Part shown: piece after piece, positions 6,945-14,825 of the stretch | Layout: each line of letters begins with the position of its first letter | Position numbering within the stretch: position 1 is the first letter of the stretch | Assembly: GCA_048939465.1 (NCBI GenBank) | Contig: JBHLPL010000016.1 | Span: forward strand, 1 to 25,432 | Length of the DNA: 25,432 nt | Source of the DNA: Promethearchaeota archaeon | GTDB lineage: Archaea; Asgardarchaeota; Odinarchaeia; Odinarchaeales; JBHLKK01 | Direction of reading: 5' to 3' | The notes under the pieces: model-generated | Databases searched by the model: none | The model's input: only the letters and a program-made list of their open reading frames with translations | What the model was told of the DNA's origin: nothing | Program-made: the position numbers and the translations under genes

Positions 6945-8165
6945 TTACTCCCAAGGACGCTTGTCCAAAGACAACTTCTCCACTTGTTCGAGTACGTAAT
7001 TTCTAATTTCGGCTGGCTCGGGTAGCTTTGCAACTATCTCCCCTTCCCTGATGATTGGCTTGATTATTGAATCCGTTTCTGCCCCACAATTGGGGCAGGT
7101 CGGAGAAGCCTTATCCGAGGGCAAAACAACATCCGTCAGGCAATCTGGACATCTCCAAACATTCTTCCATCCTGAGAGCCTATCCCGCTTGGCCACAGGC
7201 AACCACTTGCCTTCTCTCAAAACTGTAACAATATCCATTGCAAAATCAACAGTCGGAGCATTGCTCACATATGTGCCAACACCAAAACCGTCCACCCCTG
7301 CTTTGCCTAGTTCTCTAACGCTTTCTTCGTTCATCCCTCCGGATACGAAGATCTTGACGTCTTTATGCCCTCTTATGTCAAGTTCCCATCTGACCTCGCG
7401 AACTATTTTTGAGAAGTCTCCCTTCCGAGTCTTGGGGGTATCCAGTCTGACTCCCCAAAGATTGTCTCCTAGCGCGTCTGCTGCCATCAGTGATTCCGCT
7501 TTTTCATCAGAATAGGTGTCACAAAGAGGTATGCGCGGTATATTGGAAGGCATAATCTCATCGTAAGCTTTCCAAGCTTCAACTTGGTTTCCAAAGATTA
7601 TGATAAGAGCGTGTGGCATCGTTCCTGAGGGTCTAAGACCCAGCATACGAGCGCTCAAAATGCAGGATACGCCGTCAAAGCCAGAGATATAGCACGCTCT
7701 AGAGATCATCGGACTAATTGCCGGATGCTGGCGTCTGATTCCGAAAGATATGACTATTTTTTTACCAGCGATCTTCTTTATTCGACTGGCGGCAGTAGCT
7801 ATTCCAGAAGCCTGACACAGAAAACCGAGCAGAGGAGTTTCAAAAACTCCGTATTCTGCATACGCTCCTTCTATTAAGAGCACAGGCTCACGAACATTGT
7901 TATAATCCGTAGAGTAAAAAACGCTCCCTTCTGGCATTGCATAAACATTAACAGGACATCCTTCAAGAAGATACGCCACTTCTTCGATTCCAGACGATAT
8001 CCCCCAAGGCCAGTGGTTCGGCAGACCGCCAGTTGTTACTTCTGCCGTTGCAACCACATCATCTAATCCTTTTTCTTTGAGAATTTGCCTGGTTCTCACG
8101 AAGTAGATGTCCGTGGTCTCACCTGATTTAATCTCTTCATCGGATGCTGTATGAAATCTCTTCAT
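6945..8165 (-). CDS. pncB: Nicotinate phosphoribosyltransferase with C-terminal zinc ribbon
   Basis: TDIYF, SFGIRRQHP, GTMPHAL, VRLDT, FVSGG, GFGVGT; CPDC...CPNC. Frame is open to 8210, but the ATG at 8165 (MKRFHTA) is the more typical start. Confidence 0.92.
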   Translation of the reverse strand: MKRFHTASDEEIKSGETTDIYFVRTRQILKEKGLDDVVATAEVTTGGLPNHWPWGISSGIEEVAYLLEGCPVNVYAMPEGSVFYSTDYNNVREPVLLIEGAYAEYGVFETPLLGFLCQASGIATAASRIKKIAGKKIVISFGIRRQHPAISPMISRACYISGFDGVSCILSARMLGLRPSGTMPHALIIIFGNQVEAWKAYDEIMPSNIPRIPLCDTYSDEKAESLMAADALGDNLWGVRLDTPKTRKGDFSKIVREVRWELDIRGHKDVKIFVSGGMNEESVRELGKAGVDGFGVGTYVSNAPTVDFAMDIVTVLREGKWLPVAKRDRLSGWKNVWRCPDCLTDVVLPSDKASPTCPNCGAETDSIIKPIIREGEIVAKLPEPAEIRNYVLEQVEKLSLDKRPWE

Positions 8166-8278
8166 CTCTCTCTTCCTCTCTAATTGGAGACTAGGGTTGA
8201 AGTTCATCAATTTCTACGTAATTTTTTTAGGTATCCGTACCTTTTCTATTTATCTGTTACGCGTATGAGGCCAAGAAG

Positions 8279-8827
8279 ATGTTTGCGTTACTGATTATAG
8301 ATATGTTAAACGACTTCATTAGAGAGAACTCTGTTCTGGAGGTTCCGAAGGGAAGAGAAATCATTCCAAATATCCAGAAGCTCATATCAAAGGCCGAGGA
8401 AAGAGGGATTCCTGTAATATATGTTTGTGATGCTCATGAAAGAGATGATAATGAATTCTTGGAATTCAAACCGCACGCTATAAAGGGGACCGCGGGGGCG
8501 GAAGTCGTGGAGGAACTCCACCCTAGAAAGGGAGATATTATTATCGAGAAGACGAAATTCGACGGATTCTACAACACAAAACTGGACATCACGCTAAGGG
8601 ACCTTATGGCGGATACGCTAATTATTGCGGGGGTTCTTACTGATATTTGCATATTGTATACTGCTGCTAGCGCAAGTATGAGAGAATACAGGGTGTATGT
8701 TGTTAGTGATGGAACAGCAACCCACGAAGAAGAAACACACAAAGGTTTTTTGGATTATATGGCGAATTCTGCAAGGGTAGCTAGCATCGTTGACACTCAG
8801 GGAGCGTTGCTATTAATGGAAGAATAA
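8279..8827 (+). CDS. pncA: Isochorismatase-family cysteine hydrolase, probably nicotinamidase
   Basis: Catalytic Asp (IIDMLNDF), Lys (EKTKFDGF), Cys (GVLTDIC); metal ligands DAH...PH; divergent from pncB. Confidence 0.8.
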   Translation: MFALLIIDMLNDFIRENSVLEVPKGREIIPNIQKLISKAEERGIPVIYVCDAHERDDNEFLEFKPHAIKGTAGAEVVEELHPRKGDIIIEKTKFDGFYNTKLDITLRDLMADTLIIAGVLTDICILYTAASASMREYRVYVVSDGTATHEEETHKGFLDYMANSARVASIVDTQGALLLMEE

Positions 8828-8854
8828 CCTGTGATCTGTTTTCTCAGAAATAGG

Positions 8855-8922
8855 TGGAGGTCTAGATCGTCGCGAGGTCATCATTTTTTATCAGACTGGG
8901 GTCGGCGTCTATCATTCCTCCA
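8855..8922 (-). ncRNA. Box C/D-like 2'-O-methylation guide sRNA with variant terminal boxes
   Basis: Minus strand reads TGGAGG-AAT-GA-TAGA-cgccgaccccagt-CTGA-taaaaa-ATGATGA-cctcgcgacga-TCTA-GA-CCTCCA. It has a 6-bp terminal stem, a 3-nt bulge plus tandem GA kink-turn closed by a 4-bp stem, perfect D' and C' boxes, and 13- and 11/12-nt guides. Confidence 0.8.
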
Positions 8923-9047
8923 GCAGTAAATAGGGGTATTGGTTCTAAAAAACTTATGGAATCCTAACGAACGAAAGAAGAGTCCATAAAGCTTAAATAA
9001 GCAATTCAGCGACAGAAAATCTAGAATTACAGAATATCTTAATCGGT

Positions 9048-9191
9048 GGGCCCGTAGCTCAGTCAGGTAGAGCACCGGGCTTTTAAACCCTGGTGCTTCC
9101 TTGTGAAGAAACCCGGTGGGTCGTGCTGCAAATCGCACGCGAGCCGCTGCAATCTGCAGAATCGTGGGTTCGATTCCCGCCGGGCCCGCCA
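9048..9191 (+). tRNA. tRNA-Lys(UUU) with a 37/38 intron (9086-9110, 25 nt) and a composite 46/47 insertion (9120-9161, 42 nt); CCA encoded
   Basis: Removing both segments gives a 77-nt cloverleaf: GGGCCCG/CGGGCCC acceptor, GCTC/GAGC D stem, CCGGG/CCCGG anticodon stem with CTTTTAA loop, GTGGG-TTCGATT-CCCGC T arm. The 37/38 BHB helix is CTTT:GAAG. Confidence 0.93.
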
Positions 9192-9207
9192 GTCTATTCT
9201 CCTATTC

Positions 9208-9816
9208 CTAAGACACTTTGACGGATACGCTCAAACCTCGTCCTGCATCGATTGGCAAGATTACTGTGCTCCATTTCTCTGGATTCGTGATTTCATTGAC
9301 AAAATCTTCCATCCTTTCGCGGTGGGATACTGTATTATGTGCAGTAACTATACTTCCTGCTTTTAGTTTGGGGAACATCGAGGTCAAATACATAAGATAC
9401 TCGTCTTTTGCTCCATCAATAAAGGCAAAATCTATTTCTACATCAAGTTTATCAATCTGGTCTATCGCATTTCCATGAATTATCTCGATACAGTCTGCTA
9501 TTCCTTCTAGATCCTCGATCTTGCTTGCCTTCTTTAAATTGGATTTAGCAGCTTCAGCTCTTTCCGAGCTTCTTTCGATTGTATATACCTTTCCTACACC
9601 ATCGCTGTCGATCAAACCTTTTGCAAGCCAGAGCGCAGAATATCCAACTCCTGTTCCAACTTCAACGACATTGACAAAATCTCTAGGTTGTGCGTACATA
9701 CGAAGCAGAATGCTTAGGAATTCCCCGCAATCCCGAGAAATCGGATGATAGCCAAATCTCTGTCTGCTGATCTCATCCATCAGATTTAAGAATGATTTTG
9801 ACATCATGATTTTCAC
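9208..9816 (-). CDS. O-methyltransferase (Methyltransf_3, COMT/YrrM-like)
   Basis: VVEVGTGVGYSALWLA, VYTIE, FAFIDGAKDEY, VTAHN. Confidence 0.88.
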   Translation of the reverse strand: MKIMMSKSFLNLMDEISRQRFGYHPISRDCGEFLSILLRMYAQPRDFVNVVEVGTGVGYSALWLAKGLIDSDGVGKVYTIERSSERAEAAKSNLKKASKIEDLEGIADCIEIIHGNAIDQIDKLDVEIDFAFIDGAKDEYLMYLTSMFPKLKAGSIVTAHNTVSHRERMEDFVNEITNPEKWSTVILPIDAGRGLSVSVKVS

Positions 9817-9846
9817 ATATTCGTTCTTTAATTAAGATTTCTCACA

Positions 9847-10362
9847 TTAAAAGGAGAATCTACATCCAGAAATTTCGGGGCCCGCCTTCCATGGCCGTCT
9901 CTCTGAATCAGATAAATCCATAAACATCTCTACATGTCCGAGATTTTTAAAACCCCGTTCAAAAAAGAATTTCATAGCTAGTACGTTTCGCGCTACAGGC
10001 TTCACTTTGAGGAATCTTATTCCTCTGCTGCGGGCCTCGGTGATTATCCTCTGTATTAATTGGTTTCCTATTCCCTTCTTTCGGAAACCCTTCTTTATTA
10101 CAATAGGTTCAACTTCGCCTTCCTCTCCCTCAACAATCAATCCAGTAAGTCCAATAACCTGGGATTCATGAACAGCGACCCAGATTTGGTCAGGTCCCAC
10201 CTCTTCGAGGTGCTCGTCGAAGTGGTCTTCTGGGTGTTCCCCTCCAATTGTTGGATCCTGGTAAATTTCACGATGCCACTCAGTAAGCTCTCCCCATAGG
10301 GCACGACATTGATCTCTGTATTCGTCGTTGTATTTGTGAATTACAAACGATATACCCATCAA
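9847..10362 (-). CDS. GNAT family N-acetyltransferase
   Basis: Motif A IVIKKGFRKKGIGNQL; NVLAMKFFFERGF. Confidence 0.88.
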   Translation of the reverse strand: MMGISFVIHKYNDEYRDQCRALWGELTEWHREIYQDPTIGGEHPEDHFDEHLEEVGPDQIWVAVHESQVIGLTGLIVEGEEGEVEPIVIKKGFRKKGIGNQLIQRIITEARSRGIRFLKVKPVARNVLAMKFFFERGFKNLGHVEMFMDLSDSERRPWKAGPEISGCRFSF

Positions 10363-10404
10363 ACATTCACTTCCGTTATTTTCTTTTAGATGATTAAGAC
10401 TTGA

Positions 10405-11199
10405 CTACCAATAATCCATTATCAAAAACTGCCGCTCAGGAAAAATAGACCTCAGCAATCGATCCCTTTCCTTTTGACTAAGTGTTGTCTTAACATCTAT
10501 CTGATTCGTTCTCAGTGACTTGATGGGATCCATAATGCCAAAGACCAGCTGTATCAGAGAGTCACGACTCATTGAAATCTTTAAATCAACCGGTTGGTTG
10601 GTCCACACAATGGTTTCGACATTCTCTCTGGTTCTTCTAATGAATATACTATTCTCTTCGCACTCTATCTGGACTAAGCCTTCCCATCTTTTCATGCTTT
10701 CTAAGCGCTCCAAGAAAACGGGCTCTAATTCCGTGAGGAAAATTCGCAAATCAAGTACTGAAAACATTAGCACATCATTGGTTTTCGTTTCAAAAAACCC
10801 TAGATCAGTAAAGATCTTTTCATATGTTGGAGTCTGAACATAGTAACTACTAACAACTGTAGCTCCCTTCTTAGCAAGCACGTCGTTAACCTTCCCTATG
10901 AGTTCTTCGGCTATCTCTTCAAAGTCGTGTTCAACGTCAACAACTATCTCCATGATATCTCCCCATTTTGATCTTCTGTGATATTTTGCATGAGCGTATC
11001 CTAAGATGTGATTTTGATCTTCAACCGCAACCCAGTTTATGAGGTCGGTTGCGTACGATTTGTCTTCCTTACGAAGCATGAGTCTAAATGTTCTATGATC
11101 TCTATGAGCGACTCCCACAAATTGTCTAGAAAACTCATTGTACAGCTCAAGCATCTTCGGTATGTCTTCTTTCTTCGCTTCTCGCAGTTGTATTTTCAT
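10405..11199 (-). CDS. GNAT-fold + SCP2-like (Eis-type C-terminal) protein with degenerate acetyl-CoA loop
   Basis: N-terminal IQLREAKKEDIPKMLELY and WVAVEDQNHILGY GNAT strands; C-terminal VDLKISMSRDSLIQLVFG SCP2-like segment. ATG at 11199 lies 2 nt after the upstream stop, preceded by GGGGA. Confidence 0.7.
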   Translation of the reverse strand: MKIQLREAKKEDIPKMLELYNEFSRQFVGVAHRDHRTFRLMLRKEDKSYATDLINWVAVEDQNHILGYAHAKYHRRSKWGDIMEIVVDVEHDFEEIAEELIGKVNDVLAKKGATVVSSYYVQTPTYEKIFTDLGFFETKTNDVLMFSVLDLRIFLTELEPVFLERLESMKRWEGLVQIECEENSIFIRRTRENVETIVWTNQPVDLKISMSRDSLIQLVFGIMDPIKSLRTNQIDVKTTLSQKERDRLLRSIFPERQFLIMDYW

Positions 11200-11201
11200 G
11201 A

Positions 11202-11999
11202 TTAATCCCCCCATCTCCAATGTAAGACGCGTTTAAGCAATTCAATGTCTTCCTGTTCTCCTCTTTTGAGTACGAGTCTTTTGCTCTCAATAGCTTCCTC
11301 CCATGGTACCACATTCCACCATATCTTGGTATAAGTCTGTAAATCTGTGGAAAACTCTATGTCGATCCTCTTAGGCACCCTTCTTGGAACTTGAAAACGA
11401 CCTTTCTTGAACTGGAAGCATAATTCTCCGACTTCCTTGATGCCTATAACAATGGTTTTTTCCCATCCTTTCAACTTCCTTTTGGCAATCTTCGAGTCTT
11501 TCAATCGACGGTTACGCCTTCGAATCCAATTAGTAAAGAGCGAACGAAAATCTAGGTATTTCATAAAGGTGCGAAAAGTAGCCAAGTCAACAAATCCGAG
11601 TCGTTCATAAACTCTGTGAGCTGGATTATCGAGCTCAGTGTAGAGGGCGGAACTTGAAATCCCCTTATTCTTTGTGGACTCTAAAGCTTTCCCAATTACA
11701 TTGCTTGCTATCCCTTTCTTCCTATGGTCGGAATCTGTGCACACAGCAGCAACTGCCCCGGTTCTCAAGTAGGTCTTCTCGCCGACATGTAGTTTCCTAG
11801 ACATTATCTCAACGTAGCTCACAAGTTTCCCATCAACCTCCGCAACGAATGCGTCATCAGAATTAATCTTTTCTTGACTGTACCACTGTAAGAGCTGTTT
11901 AGGAGTCACTGGACCAAAGCATTCCCTGAGAATCTTGGCCAGATTTGTTTCATCACCTTTCTTATAGTTGCGAACTAGGTACTTCGTGGGTTCACTCAA
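11202..11999 (-). CDS. GNAT (Eis N-terminal-like) + SCP2-like domain acetyltransferase
   Basis: GAVAAVCTDSDHRKKGIAS motif A; NPAHRVYERLGF; C-terminal IDIEFSTDLQTYTKIWW...EAIESKRLVLK SCP2-like. Confidence 0.8.
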   Translation of the reverse strand: MSEPTKYLVRNYKKGDETNLAKILRECFGPVTPKQLLQWYSQEKINSDDAFVAEVDGKLVSYVEIMSRKLHVGEKTYLRTGAVAAVCTDSDHRKKGIASNVIGKALESTKNKGISSSALYTELDNPAHRVYERLGFVDLATFRTFMKYLDFRSLFTNWIRRRNRRLKDSKIAKRKLKGWEKTIVIGIKEVGELCFQFKKGRFQVPRRVPKRIDIEFSTDLQTYTKIWWNVVPWEEAIESKRLVLKRGEQEDIELLKRVLHWRWGD

Positions 12000-12102
12000 A
12001 TGTTGCCCCCCTAATTAATAACTGTAATAATCGTTAAGATATGACTAAGTAGAGGCCAAAGCCTTTATTAAACTCTCCAAAAAGCCTTATAAGATTCGTC
12101 AG

Positions 12103-12331
12103 AATCTGGGGAGAATAGTATGCCAGCATCAAAAACATCCGTGCAAGGCTATATTATGACGCAGGCACTGACTCAGTCGAGAAAATGGCATCTTCGAATC
12201 CTAAAGAACTTCGAGCACTGCTTATTGAATTTGTTAAAAGAACCCAATTCGACGGAATCGCACCGTTGTCAAAGGAGGCTGAATTCTCAGTCAGAAAGGC
12301 CAAGGAATTGCCAAAGATAGTGGAATACTAG
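12103..12331 (+). pseudogene. 5'-truncated, frameshifted remnant of a DUF4332-like (HhH) protein gene
   Basis: Frame from 12119 reads YASIKNIRARLYYDAGTDSVEKMASSNPKELRALLIEFVKRTQFDGIAPLSKEAEFSVRKAKELPKIVEY* and is preceded by an in-frame TAG (12116). NLGRI lies just upstream in another frame. Family assignment is from recalled similarity, not a search. Confidence 0.7.
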
Positions 12332-12430
12332 AGAAACCTACGATCTCAATAGTGGTAAATCCGGACCTTATTGATTTCATTGTTATCAAAAACCTTTTAG
12401 GAGAAATAATTCCTAGTTAAAAAGGAATGT

Positions 12431-12559
12431 GGGCCCGTAGCTCAGGTAGGTAGAGCGTCGGTCCATTTAGTCGATGGGACGAAGCTCTTAACCCGATGGA
12501 CTGTTAAGCGCATGGTTTAACAGGTCGAATCAGGGGTTCAATTCCCCTCGGGCCCGCCA
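12431..12559 (+). tRNA. tRNA-Lys(CUU) with introns at 30/31 (12462-12483, 22 nt) and 46/47 (12500-12529, 30 nt); CCA encoded
   Basis: Spliced product is a 77-nt cloverleaf (TCGGG/CCCGA stem, CTCTTAA loop, AGGGG-TTCAATT-CCCCT). The 30/31 intron has a full BHB (GAG:CTC, CGTC:GACG, CCAT:ATGG). The 46/47 intron has helix CGAT:GTCG plus a CTGTTAA/TTAACAG stem. Confidence 0.95.
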
Positions 12560-12689
12560 ACCATAATTCGAGAATCTTTTGCCCAGAAACCCCAATATTG
12601 GTGCTTCGAGACATACCTGGCAATTCAGAATGCTCGATAATTCTCCGTTAGGGGAGACTCATAAGTGCTTGCTAGGGTGGAGATAGACT

Positions 12690-13451
12690 TTGTGCAATAC
12701 GGGAAGAATAAGAAAAGAATGGAATGATGCTGCTGAATCATGGGTAGATTTTGTAAGGAAAGGGAAGGACTACCATAGAGATCAAATCAACAATCCTGCT
12801 GCCTTTGGCTTGATAGGCAATGTAAAAGGTATGAACGTGTTGGATCTGGCCTGTGGAGAGGGATACAACACAAGAATCCTTGCTAGAAAAGGGGCCAAGG
12901 TAGTCGGTGTAGATCTTTCAGAGAGAATGATTGAATTTGCGAGGCAGGAAGAAAAGACAGAGGAACTTGGCATATCATATCATAATTTGGACGCCTCGGA
13001 CCTTAAGGAATTTTCAAGCCATCATTTTGATCTTGTAACATGTTTTATGTCTCTCCAAGATATTGAGAGCTATGAAAAAGCAATATCGGAAGTAGCCAGG
13101 GTCTTGAAGAATCGTTCTAGATTCATCTTCTCGATCCCTCACCCGTGTTTTGAAAGAATAAATGGGTTGGAAGTAAGTACAAGAAGGAAGTATTTCCGAG
13201 CAGTTCGATACTCTTTGGAATGGAAAATGGAAAGACTAAAAGAACCATTCAGAACCACGTCCTTCCATAGGACTTTGACAGACTACATTGCTGTCCTTAA
13301 CGGGAGCGGATTATTCGTGTCTAATCTCTTGGAGCCGAAGCCCACGGAAAAGGGAGTACTGAAACATCCTAGGCTCAAAAAGAATTTGGCGATACCAGAA
13401 TCGATAGTAATTGAATCCATAAAAATCGAGGACGGCTGGGTCAGATCCTGA
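12690..13451 (+). CDS. Class I SAM-dependent methyltransferase
   Basis: VLDLACGEGY, VVGVDLS, FDLVTCFMSL, ARVLK, FSIPHPCF. TTG start. Confidence 0.9.
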   Translation: MCNTGRIRKEWNDAAESWVDFVRKGKDYHRDQINNPAAFGLIGNVKGMNVLDLACGEGYNTRILARKGAKVVGVDLSERMIEFARQEEKTEELGISYHNLDASDLKEFSSHHFDLVTCFMSLQDIESYEKAISEVARVLKNRSRFIFSIPHPCFERINGLEVSTRRKYFRAVRYSLEWKMERLKEPFRTTSFHRTLTDYIAVLNGSGLFVSNLLEPKPTEKGVLKHPRLKKNLAIPESIVIESIKIEDGWVRS

Positions 13452-13904
13452 AGAGAGACTTGGAGATATCGACCTGCAAATCCTTATTATTGTCACTCAC
13501 CGATAGGTTTGGAATTCGATGCACTCCCATATCATCGTCCTACCCCGGTCTCTTAAATGCGACGCGCAGGACCTATTCATGCGACTGCCTTCCGTTAAAT
13601 TGCCTTTGGAGGTAAGTTGTCAATAATATAGTAACTATGTGTTATCTAATCCAGATGAGAATGGCACCAAGGGAATCTGCTGGTCATATATACTTACAGT
13701 AGGAAAAGATGATGCACTTGTATGTACAGGTCCACCATGCAAGAATGAATTCAGAAAATACGCAATTAGATAATTTGTAGTGTTAGTATCTCTTTTAGTT
13801 TCCTTGATCTTACCAACATATAGCTCTCAGTATATAGCAAAATTCATTGATTCTTTTAAATAATCGTAGAAGCCATTACTGCATAATCCAAAAACGAATG
13901 GATC

Positions 13905-14825
13905 GTGACGTATTTGAAGCAAAGCATCCTCCTCCCCATTCCAAAGAATTTCAACTTCTGGACTACTGTCTGGAGCAGCGGCTGGTGCAGCTTAGAGCCT
14001 TTTGCCGTTAGCAAGGAAGAGCAGACACTGTCTCGCGTTCAAAAATTATCGAGTGGAAAAATCGTTAGGGTTACGCTGGCACAAAACCGTAAGGGCGAAC
14101 TCCCAATCTTGGTAGAATCCCATAGAAGGATGAGCATTTCAGACGTTGACGAACTCGAAAATGTTGTGAAAATCTGTCTAAGATTGGACGAAGATCTTTC
14201 ACCTCTCTACTCTCTGCTTGAAGATTACCCAGAGTTTGGCTGGGCAGAAGAACTCGATGTTGGTCGCTCTGTTAGATCCCCCACCGTTTTCGAAGACGTC
14301 GTTAAGACAATCTGCACCACAAATGCTAGCTGGTCTCTTACAAAAGCTGCAATACACAGAATCTGCAGAAGGATCGGGGATAGCTTCTCTGATGAGTTTC
14401 ACACGTTTCCAACACCCCGGCAAATGGCCTCAAAAAGTGAGGAATTCATGAGAAAAGAGATAAGAGTCGGCTATCGCAGCCCCTATCTGATAGAACTGGC
14501 TCAAAAAACAGCTGAAGGGAGATTTGATGTTGAATCATGGAACACCTGTTTGACAAGTTCTACTGACCTTAAAGCTGAAATCACAAAACTAAAGGGAGTG
14601 GGGAGTTACGCAGCAGACAACATATTGAAGCTCCTGGGTAGGTATGATTTTCTGGCTATAGACAGCTGGGTGAGAAAGAGATTTGCTAAAATCCACAGGA
14701 AAGGGAAAATGGCCTCCGATGGGGAGATTGAAGAATTCTACGCTCCGTTCGGGGAATGGAGGGGTTTGGTTTTGTGGCTTGACTTGACAAAGGAGTGGCT
14801 TATCCCCGAGAGTGAAAGAAAGTAG
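13905..14825 (+). CDS. HhH-GPD DNA glycosylase (OGG_N + HhH; AlkA/OGG1-like)
   Basis: RSPTVFEDVVKTICTTN, FPTP, HhH LKGVGSYAA, catalytic Asp in AIDSWV, YAPFGEWRG. Confidence 0.85.
   Translation: MTYLKQSILLPIPKNFNFWTTVWSSGWCSLEPFAVSKEEQTLSRVQKLSSGKIVRVTLAQNRKGELPILVESHRRMSISDVDELENVVKICLRLDEDLSPLYSLLEDYPEFGWAEELDVGRSVRSPTVFEDVVKTICTTNASWSLTKAAIHRICRRIGDSFSDEFHTFPTPRQMASKSEEFMRKEIRVGYRSPYLIELAQKTAEGRFDVESWNTCLTSSTDLKAEITKLKGVGSYAADNILKLLGRYDFLAIDSWVRKRFAKIHRKGKMASDGEIEEFYAPFGEWRGLVLWLDLTKEWLIPESERK

Follow-up and report, generated by a model that had tools for sequence, protein, structure and literature searches.

The window analysed here is the whole stretch of 25,432 nucleotides from an Asgard archaeon, and at 9048-9191 it contains a tRNA-Lys(UUU) gene with two inserts, one of 25 nt at 37/38 and one of 42 nt at 46/47. 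In the Rfam search of the window, 9048-9188 matched the tRNA family RF00005 with 50.3 bits; ARAGORN, unlike Rfam, predicted no tRNA in the window. When 9086-9110 and 9120-9161 are taken out, a normal 77-nt tRNA-Lys(UUU) cloverleaf remains, with an encoded CCA and a 5-nt variable region, the size found in the orthologs of the sister family and in intron-less Asgard orthologs. The features are as follows.

8992..8999, plus strand: TATA-like box CTTAAATA, about 50 nt upstream of the tRNA, kept in six of six lineages with variable flanks
9048..9085, plus strand: exon 1, positions 1-37, with the anticodon TTT at 9082-9084 (from Rfam and the sequence)
9086..9110, plus strand: canonical 37/38 intron, 25 nt, a full BHB (central helix 4/4, outer helix 7, inner helix 2), conserved in the genus
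9111..9119, plus strand: exon 2, positions 38-46, with the exon strand of helix H1 at 9114-9117 and the 5' bulge at 9118-9119
9120..9161, plus strand: composite 46/47 intervening sequence, 42 nt, of equal length in six lineages
9121..9142, plus strand: inner stem-loop h', 9121-9125:9138-9142 plus 9127-9129:9135-9137
9143..9146, plus strand: GCCG, invariant in sequence, intron strand of helix H1 (4/4 pairs in every lineage), which sets the 5' splice site GG^G between 9119 and 9120
9147..9159, plus strand: hairpin H2, 13 nt, 5 bp with the loop at 9152-9154; a 4-bp helix lies directly before the 3' site
9160..9161, plus strand: AA of the 3' splice site AA^T (9161/9162), invariant, the typical 3' bulge of the variable-loop introns of the order
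9162..9191, plus strand: exon 3, positions 47-76, with the encoded CCA at 9189-9191

This is the only Lys(UUU) gene found in the assembly, which is 91% complete, and AAA makes up 3.4% of the codons in the genome. Together with the conservation of the TATA-like box, which may be the promoter, these observations argue that the gene must work. The neighbourhood at 6945-14825 encodes a nicotinate phosphoribosyltransferase, an isochorismatase-family hydrolase, an O-methyltransferase, three GNAT acetyltransferases, a class I methyltransferase, and an OGG-like glycosylase; its synteny is kept in the genus, and nothing in it points to a mobile element. The stretch 8855-8922, immediately before the presumed tRNA promoter, is nearly invariant in the six lineages. 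This segment has 10 bases in common with a 16-nt ancestral intron supposed by the original prediction (see below), probably by chance.

The original prediction had described the 46/47 insert as a composite intron without a single standard BHB, and the coordinates and pairings on which it was built are all present. The stem 9121-9125:9138-9142 has 5 bp (one G.U), the exon CGGT (9114-9117) pairs with GCCG (9143-9146), and the perfect hairpin 9147-9159 is followed by AA at 9160-9161 and then by T47 at 9162. The pairs of h' have predicted probabilities of 0.8-1.0 at 37 C, and 98% of the corresponding alignment cells are paired. Drawn on one central helix, the whole 42 nt has 3/4 pairs, or 4/4 in G001 alone, and lacks a flanking helix. 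The 13-mer, rightly thought to be without a good BHB of its own, reaches as a nested intron at best 3/4 pairs with atypical bulges in the registers 9143 to 9149.

The insert is exactly 42 nt long, without indels, in all six species-level lineages of the genus, for which two other genomes and contigs were used; the further lineages were reached via the neighbouring proteins on the contigs. Contigs from four independent studies span the insert, and no internal indel was seen among the matches listed. Since the exact length is kept in six lineages, the insert is genuine and not an assembly artefact, a question that had been raised with the original prediction. Seven of the 42 positions vary, on a flank tree that sums to about one change per site, and the three genomes are 88-90% identical over the insert, towards the top of what the other introns of the genus show (58-100%). 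In some orthologs (L122, L123, and L126), C27 in the anticodon stem is replaced by T, giving a T.G pair, and the insert is still 42 nt. Joints that skip the whole insert (9072 to 9162, and 9086 to 9162 with other letters between) were short-sided matches and are most readily explained by intron-less tRNAs from other organisms.

Both parts of the insert, that is, all 42 nt, are present in the six lineages. The sister family has a simple, plain 26-29-nt intron at 46/47, which ends in GCCG-AA and has an unrelated inner sequence, and no 16-nt or 29-nt version of the insert was found in any relative examined. A phylum-wide pattern search did not find a similar insert outside the genus, the Lokiarchaeia-type matches being D-loop matches. 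Pattern scans of metagenome contigs gave no match, and no tRNA was found among the neighbours of more distant methyltransferase homologs.

Some perfect 5-bp hairpin occurs in 19% of shuffled 42-mers; thus, support for H2 has to come from the orthologs. Among shuffled 13-mers, 0.3% close into five perfect pairs over their whole length. In every lineage, pairing is kept at 9149:9157, 9150:9156, and 9151:9155, the last as A-T or G.T, and 9148:9158 is T-A in the clade of this genome, G-C in G001, and, in three lineages, G.G. These three G.G lineages have a perfect helix shifted by three bases (9144-9147:9156-9159) in place of the H2 pairing, and a perfect 4-bp helix ends just before AA^U in six of the six lineages, not always the same helix. 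The covariation test was not significant, as 328 of 500 shuffles score as high; there is a single double change, and the two substitutions behind T-A share one short branch of the tree. The two lineage groups in which G at 9158 was lost gained the 9148:9158 pair, for which G.G would be the ancestral state under midpoint rooting only. The orthologs lend the hairpin modest support. H2 pairs two of the three bases of the would-be bulge CT^G and is predicted to lock it (9148/9149).

The insert had also been described as containing a duplicated 13-nt element, with, as one possible reading, a mobile mini-element inserted twice into a 16-nt ancestral intron. The imperfect direct repeat is present letter by letter, with 7 exact bases and, when gapped, 12 matches in 14 columns; this agreement is what speaks for a mobile origin. 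Duplication was not confirmed, as the significance is marginal in this genome (p = 0.07, exact; p = 0.025, gapped and post hoc) and absent from four other lineage variants (p = 0.27-0.6, gapped). The match relies on T9148 and A9158, which are confined to the clade of this genome. The genome contains one exact copy of the 13-mer and no second one, and its four near copies are at the level of chance (0-10 in shuffles). With neither a 16-nt nor a 29-nt form in the relatives examined, we give the mobile element almost no probability at all; an old local duplication may conceivably lie behind the repeat.

As a comparison set, we used 18 ordinary variable-loop intron loci from the genus and the sister family. 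The central helix is 4/4 in 11 of them and imperfect in seven, an inner helix is nearly always present, and there is no real outer helix. These introns begin with A almost without exception, whereas the 42-nt insert begins with G. The first base of the 3' bulge is A in 17 loci, T in one, and C in none; thus, a cut at CT^G or CG^G would be atypical, and AA^U fits. A control in the same window, tRNA-Lys(CUU) at 12431-12559, has a 30-nt 46/47 intron (12500-12529) with a 4/4 helix and a 9-bp inner helix, and the 5' strand of its anticodon stem carries a second insert, about 22 nt long.

One- and two-step removals with introns of at least 8 nt were enumerated in all variants. No one- or two-step path had canonical motifs at every step and ended in the normal tRNA with its 5-nt variable region, as ordered splicing of nested or tandem introns would have it. 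When 3/4 central pairs were allowed, 266 paths appeared, and relaxed motifs are therefore uninformative here; an Asgard preprint likewise warns about them (10.64898/2026.10.13.758758). A 30-nt motif at 9132-9161 (AA^A..AA^T, 4/4, outer helix of 5 bp) and a 27-nt motif at 9126-9152 both score well, but neither has a good second step to a normal tRNA, and the predicted pairing of both is near zero. If 9120-9125, which is identical to mature positions 46-51, is taken as exon, the variable region becomes 6 nt long and the motif is 3/4. At the 5' site, an HBh' half-motif is present in all six lineages, with a 4/4 central helix and an inner helix of 4-6 bp.

We calculated the cost of each motif as the free energy needed to force it open in the full precursor (ViennaRNA, 37 C). 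Ordinary variable-loop introns with 4/4 helices cost 1.2-4.6 kcal/mol, a 3/4 control costs 7.4 kcal/mol, and a 29-nt insert in the tRNA-Phe(GAA) of Odinarchaeum costs 12-14. For the 42-nt insert, the 5' half-site costs 3.8 kcal/mol here (3.2-5.7 over the six lineages) and the 3' half-site costs 1.8 kcal/mol (1.0-4.2). In this model, the half-sites are the only option near the ordinary range in all six lineages, with a gap that is partly built in by the looser constraint. Without the 37/38 intron, the cost of the 5' half-site rises from 3.8 to 9.0 kcal/mol; this hints at removal of the 46/47 insert before that intron. In the red alga C. merolae, the 37/38 motif was processed last (PMC3728597).

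The Phe(GAA) insert of Odinarchaeum (L172-L175) is conserved and lies in the variable loop; it has 3/4 pairs, no adjacent inner helix, a G start, and two copies of CxGG 7 nt apart, and it is possibly another composite intron. Judging from this insert, weak motifs may be tolerated in the order. In tRNA-Tyr(GUA) (G000 C66:10537-10674, minus strand; L051, L078, L106, L004, L005, and L007), the 37/38 intron looks composite, with a copy-like stretch of the 3' strand of the anticodon arm and a D-stem complement in both families, and in the genus there is an additional insert in the D region. Near 9233 of G000 C121 (plus strand), a tRNA-like 5' end without an Rfam match is probably part of another heavily interrupted tRNA gene.

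The genome encodes two EndA paralogs (L146:1168-1782 and L147:1474-2049). The catalytic one has Aeropyrum EndA (3P1Z) as its best match (E = 1.5e-44), and the region of the catalytic Y, H, and K aligns to 3P1Z. The specificity loop is gap-free in the EndA alignment, RKPK here versus EKPR in Aeropyrum; this loop confers cutting of relaxed motifs (PMC3241643, PMC12397907) and has been reported for Asgard enzymes, and enzymes of this type cut relaxed motifs (PMC5829648). Two RtcB homologs were found (G000 C31:2961-5708, minus strand, and C78:6301-7587). The homolog on C31 is a 973-aa frame in which the Pfam match is interrupted after model position 57, the pattern that an intein would give. By sequence, the host thus has genes for a broad-specificity EndA and for RtcB. 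A substrate whose 3' junction is barely cut is cited in PMC3241643, and the two sites would thus not need to be cut together. The 5' and 3' sites may also be independent hBH and HBh' entities (PMC4090602). Cutting on two different central helices was found in neither PMC3241643 nor PMC4090602, and no published substrate of this kind was found.

The insert, its conservation, its pairings, and the enzyme genes are established here, and from them we infer transcription, each of the cuts, and the order of events. We propose that there is one 46/47 intron whose splice motif is spread over two helices. The 5' site GG^G would lie in an ordinary HBh' half-motif, in which exon positions 41-44 pair with GCCG and the inner stem follows. 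The 3' site AA^U would lie after a second 4-bp helix within the intron, the hairpin in this genome and the three-base-shifted helix in lineages with G9158. A two-subunit EndA would bind each helix in turn and cut in separate events, and RtcB would then join G46 to U47. The hairpin would also conceal 9148/9149, where a cut and ligation would leave 13 nt in the tRNA. A nick by EndA in the hairpin loop is possible, and it would be harmless if no intermediate is ligated. On this proposal, the whole 42 nt is lost without a ligated intermediate, the 5' cut being made on the helix of the exon with GCCG and the 3' cut on the hairpin helix; we consider this the best reading, at not far below an even chance. 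Stated more broadly, it would be a tRNA intron with its sites read on two central helices, where the symmetric EndA acts twice as a single-site cutter and the hairpin masks a cryptic cut in an essential tRNA, and this we put forward tentatively. Against the split motif stand the thin covariation, the G.G within the hairpin pairing in three of six lineages, and G as the first base of the intron; moreover, a loop cut at 9152/9153 with sealing of 9152 to 9162 could give a wrong product.

The main rival is a pair of tandem introns with the upstream one removed first, as the original prediction had suggested: 9120-9148 (29 nt) would leave via HBh', ligation would follow, and 9149-9161 (13 nt) would then leave with CGGT pairing to 9156-9159. 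This route yields exactly the normal tRNA, its step 1 has the 4/4 helix and the 4-6-bp inner helix in all lineages, and abutting introns are known in the sister family. Yet step 1 would need a cut at a bulge that begins with C, as in none of the 18 ordinary loci, and that the hairpin would lock, and any selection restoring 9148:9158 would oppose it. Step 2 is 4/4 in G001 but only 3/4 in the other five lineages, without an inner helix; mismatched helices do occur in seven of the 18 ordinary loci, and the Phe(GAA) insert of Odinarchaeum is similarly weak. The costs, 8.7 kcal/mol here for the 29-nt intron (7.8-10.3 over the lineages) and 9.4 for the 13-nt remainder (6.4-9.5), exceed those of the 4/4 controls, and we regard the route as unlikely. 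In the reverse order, abutting introns would share a strand: 12 nt (9150-9161) would be removed first via CCGC 9144-9147 paired with 9156-9159, and the upstream part afterwards. The layout CCGC..GCGG is that of the tRNA-Val(CAC) tandem in four Odinarchaeum genomes, and in the three G9158 lineages the first motif is 4/4 Watson-Crick and costs 4.8-6.7 kcal/mol. It is 3/4 in this genome (9.2 kcal/mol), its sister clade, and G001, where the costs are 8.6-11 kcal/mol, and the second step is one base off: a perfect motif leaves a 6-nt variable region, an x-marked motif (one mismatch, then three pairs) leaves 4 nt without G46, and the registers that give the normal TGGTC pair only 1/4 and 2/4. We judge this order decidedly unlikely.

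The structure and end product of the split motif would also be reached in a single binding event at a three-way junction, with EndA bound to H1, the hairpin displaced, and AA^U brought to the second active site. The original suggestion of an enzyme that tolerates an extruded hairpin comes closest to the preferred reading, but the geometry is better matched by two separate events at the half-sites than by a single one. The helices H1, h', and H2 can indeed be formed together (-18.2 kcal/mol for the local segment); by geometric inference, however, with the hairpin formed, AAU exits from 9159 across the helix from where a BHB bulge exits, and in the G.G lineages the dominant shifted hairpin consumes three bases of the H1 strand. 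If the helices stack, the cleavable bulges leave from the same strand, and a two-fold symmetric enzyme cannot engage both at once; we therefore rank two events above one, and the junction appears quite improbable. Even less can be said for one relaxed step, in which CGGT pairs with 9156-9159 and 13 nt are looped out opposite the 5' bulge (bulge-helix-loop). The pairing is 4/4 in G001 and 3/4 elsewhere, and enzymes of this type cut relaxed motifs (PMC3241643), but the step is the costliest option in the full precursor (16.6 kcal/mol here, on the exon helix; 10.5-16.6 over the lineages), accounts for neither the invariant GCCG nor the 9148:9158 pair, and uses a 3/4 motif of the kind that arises by chance at most boundaries, as in the 266 paths above (10.64898/2026.10.13.758758); we hold it to be highly improbable. 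The removal of 9120-9148 alone, also foreseen in the original prediction, would leave a mature tRNA-Lys with an 18-nt variable region and a 3-4-bp arm. The 29-nt motif is the sole full HBh' motif at the 5' site, and the three pairs of the arm hold in all lineages. A long variable arm is a mark of Ser and Leu tRNAs. This outcome would require a cut at CT^G, which is both locked and atypical. Every 46/47 intron of the order has a 3' site like the invariant AA^TC end of the insert, and the sister-family and intron-less Asgard orthologs have 5-nt variable regions; we give this outcome scarcely any weight.

[quoted passage not shown] In those introns both cuts flank one central helix, whereas in the Lys insert the helix of the 5' site is 13 nt from the 3' site, with a second helix between them. 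Like the nested multi-intron pre-tRNAs of Thermoproteales, the gene has several inserts, and the primary transcript does not allow its motif to be drawn in a single step. In Thermoproteales, each removal exposes a good next motif (ordered splicing described by Sugahara 2007 and Tocchini-Valentini 2009, as cited in PMC3978253 and PMC3728597), whereas no order of one or two removals does so on the way to the normal tRNA in the Lys insert. In the tRNA-Val(CAC) of Odinarchaeum (L161, L166, L168, and L170), a 41-46-nt insert consists of two abutting introns with two 4/4 motifs that share the strand CCGC, the downstream one removed first, at 1.2-3.0 kcal/mol for the steps. Both are variable-loop inserts without a single BHB, and the letters CCGC..GCGG also occur in three of the six Lys lineages; the Val insert, however, resolves into two 4/4 motifs and varies in length, whereas the Lys insert is fixed at 42 nt and its shared-strand route is one base off. 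By its sequence, the Lys insert would belong to the EndA-spliced non-canonical tRNA introns, but it fits neither one central helix nor a clean nested or tandem arrangement.

Introns that are non-canonical, multiple, or removed in a set order are well documented for both Thermoproteales and Asgard archaea (PMC4090602, PMC3978253, PMC11291895). In the papers that could be searched, neither this insert nor a split motif was found described, and a paper search for tandem tRNA introns with BHB motifs found none. The Asgard introns of the preprint 10.64898/2026.10.13.758758 come from the same phylum, and many are non-canonical: a canonical motif was present in only 21% of the missed variable-region inserts, the removal of which was left open. 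Its main text mentions neither nested or tandem introns nor Odinarchaeia.

In the usual description of archaeal splicing, the two cuts flank a single 4-bp helix, and this is the shape for which annotation tools look. If the two sites of the Lys insert are indeed read on separate helices, the splicing rule would be looser than has been assumed. This would bear on the numerous variable-region inserts of Asgard archaea that have no canonical motif, and on the origin of the independent recognition of 5' and 3' sites, as in the eukaryotic enzyme. If the insert instead consists of two tandem introns, it would be a modest addition to known ordered splicing. The six natural variants are a ready small test set for in vitro work.
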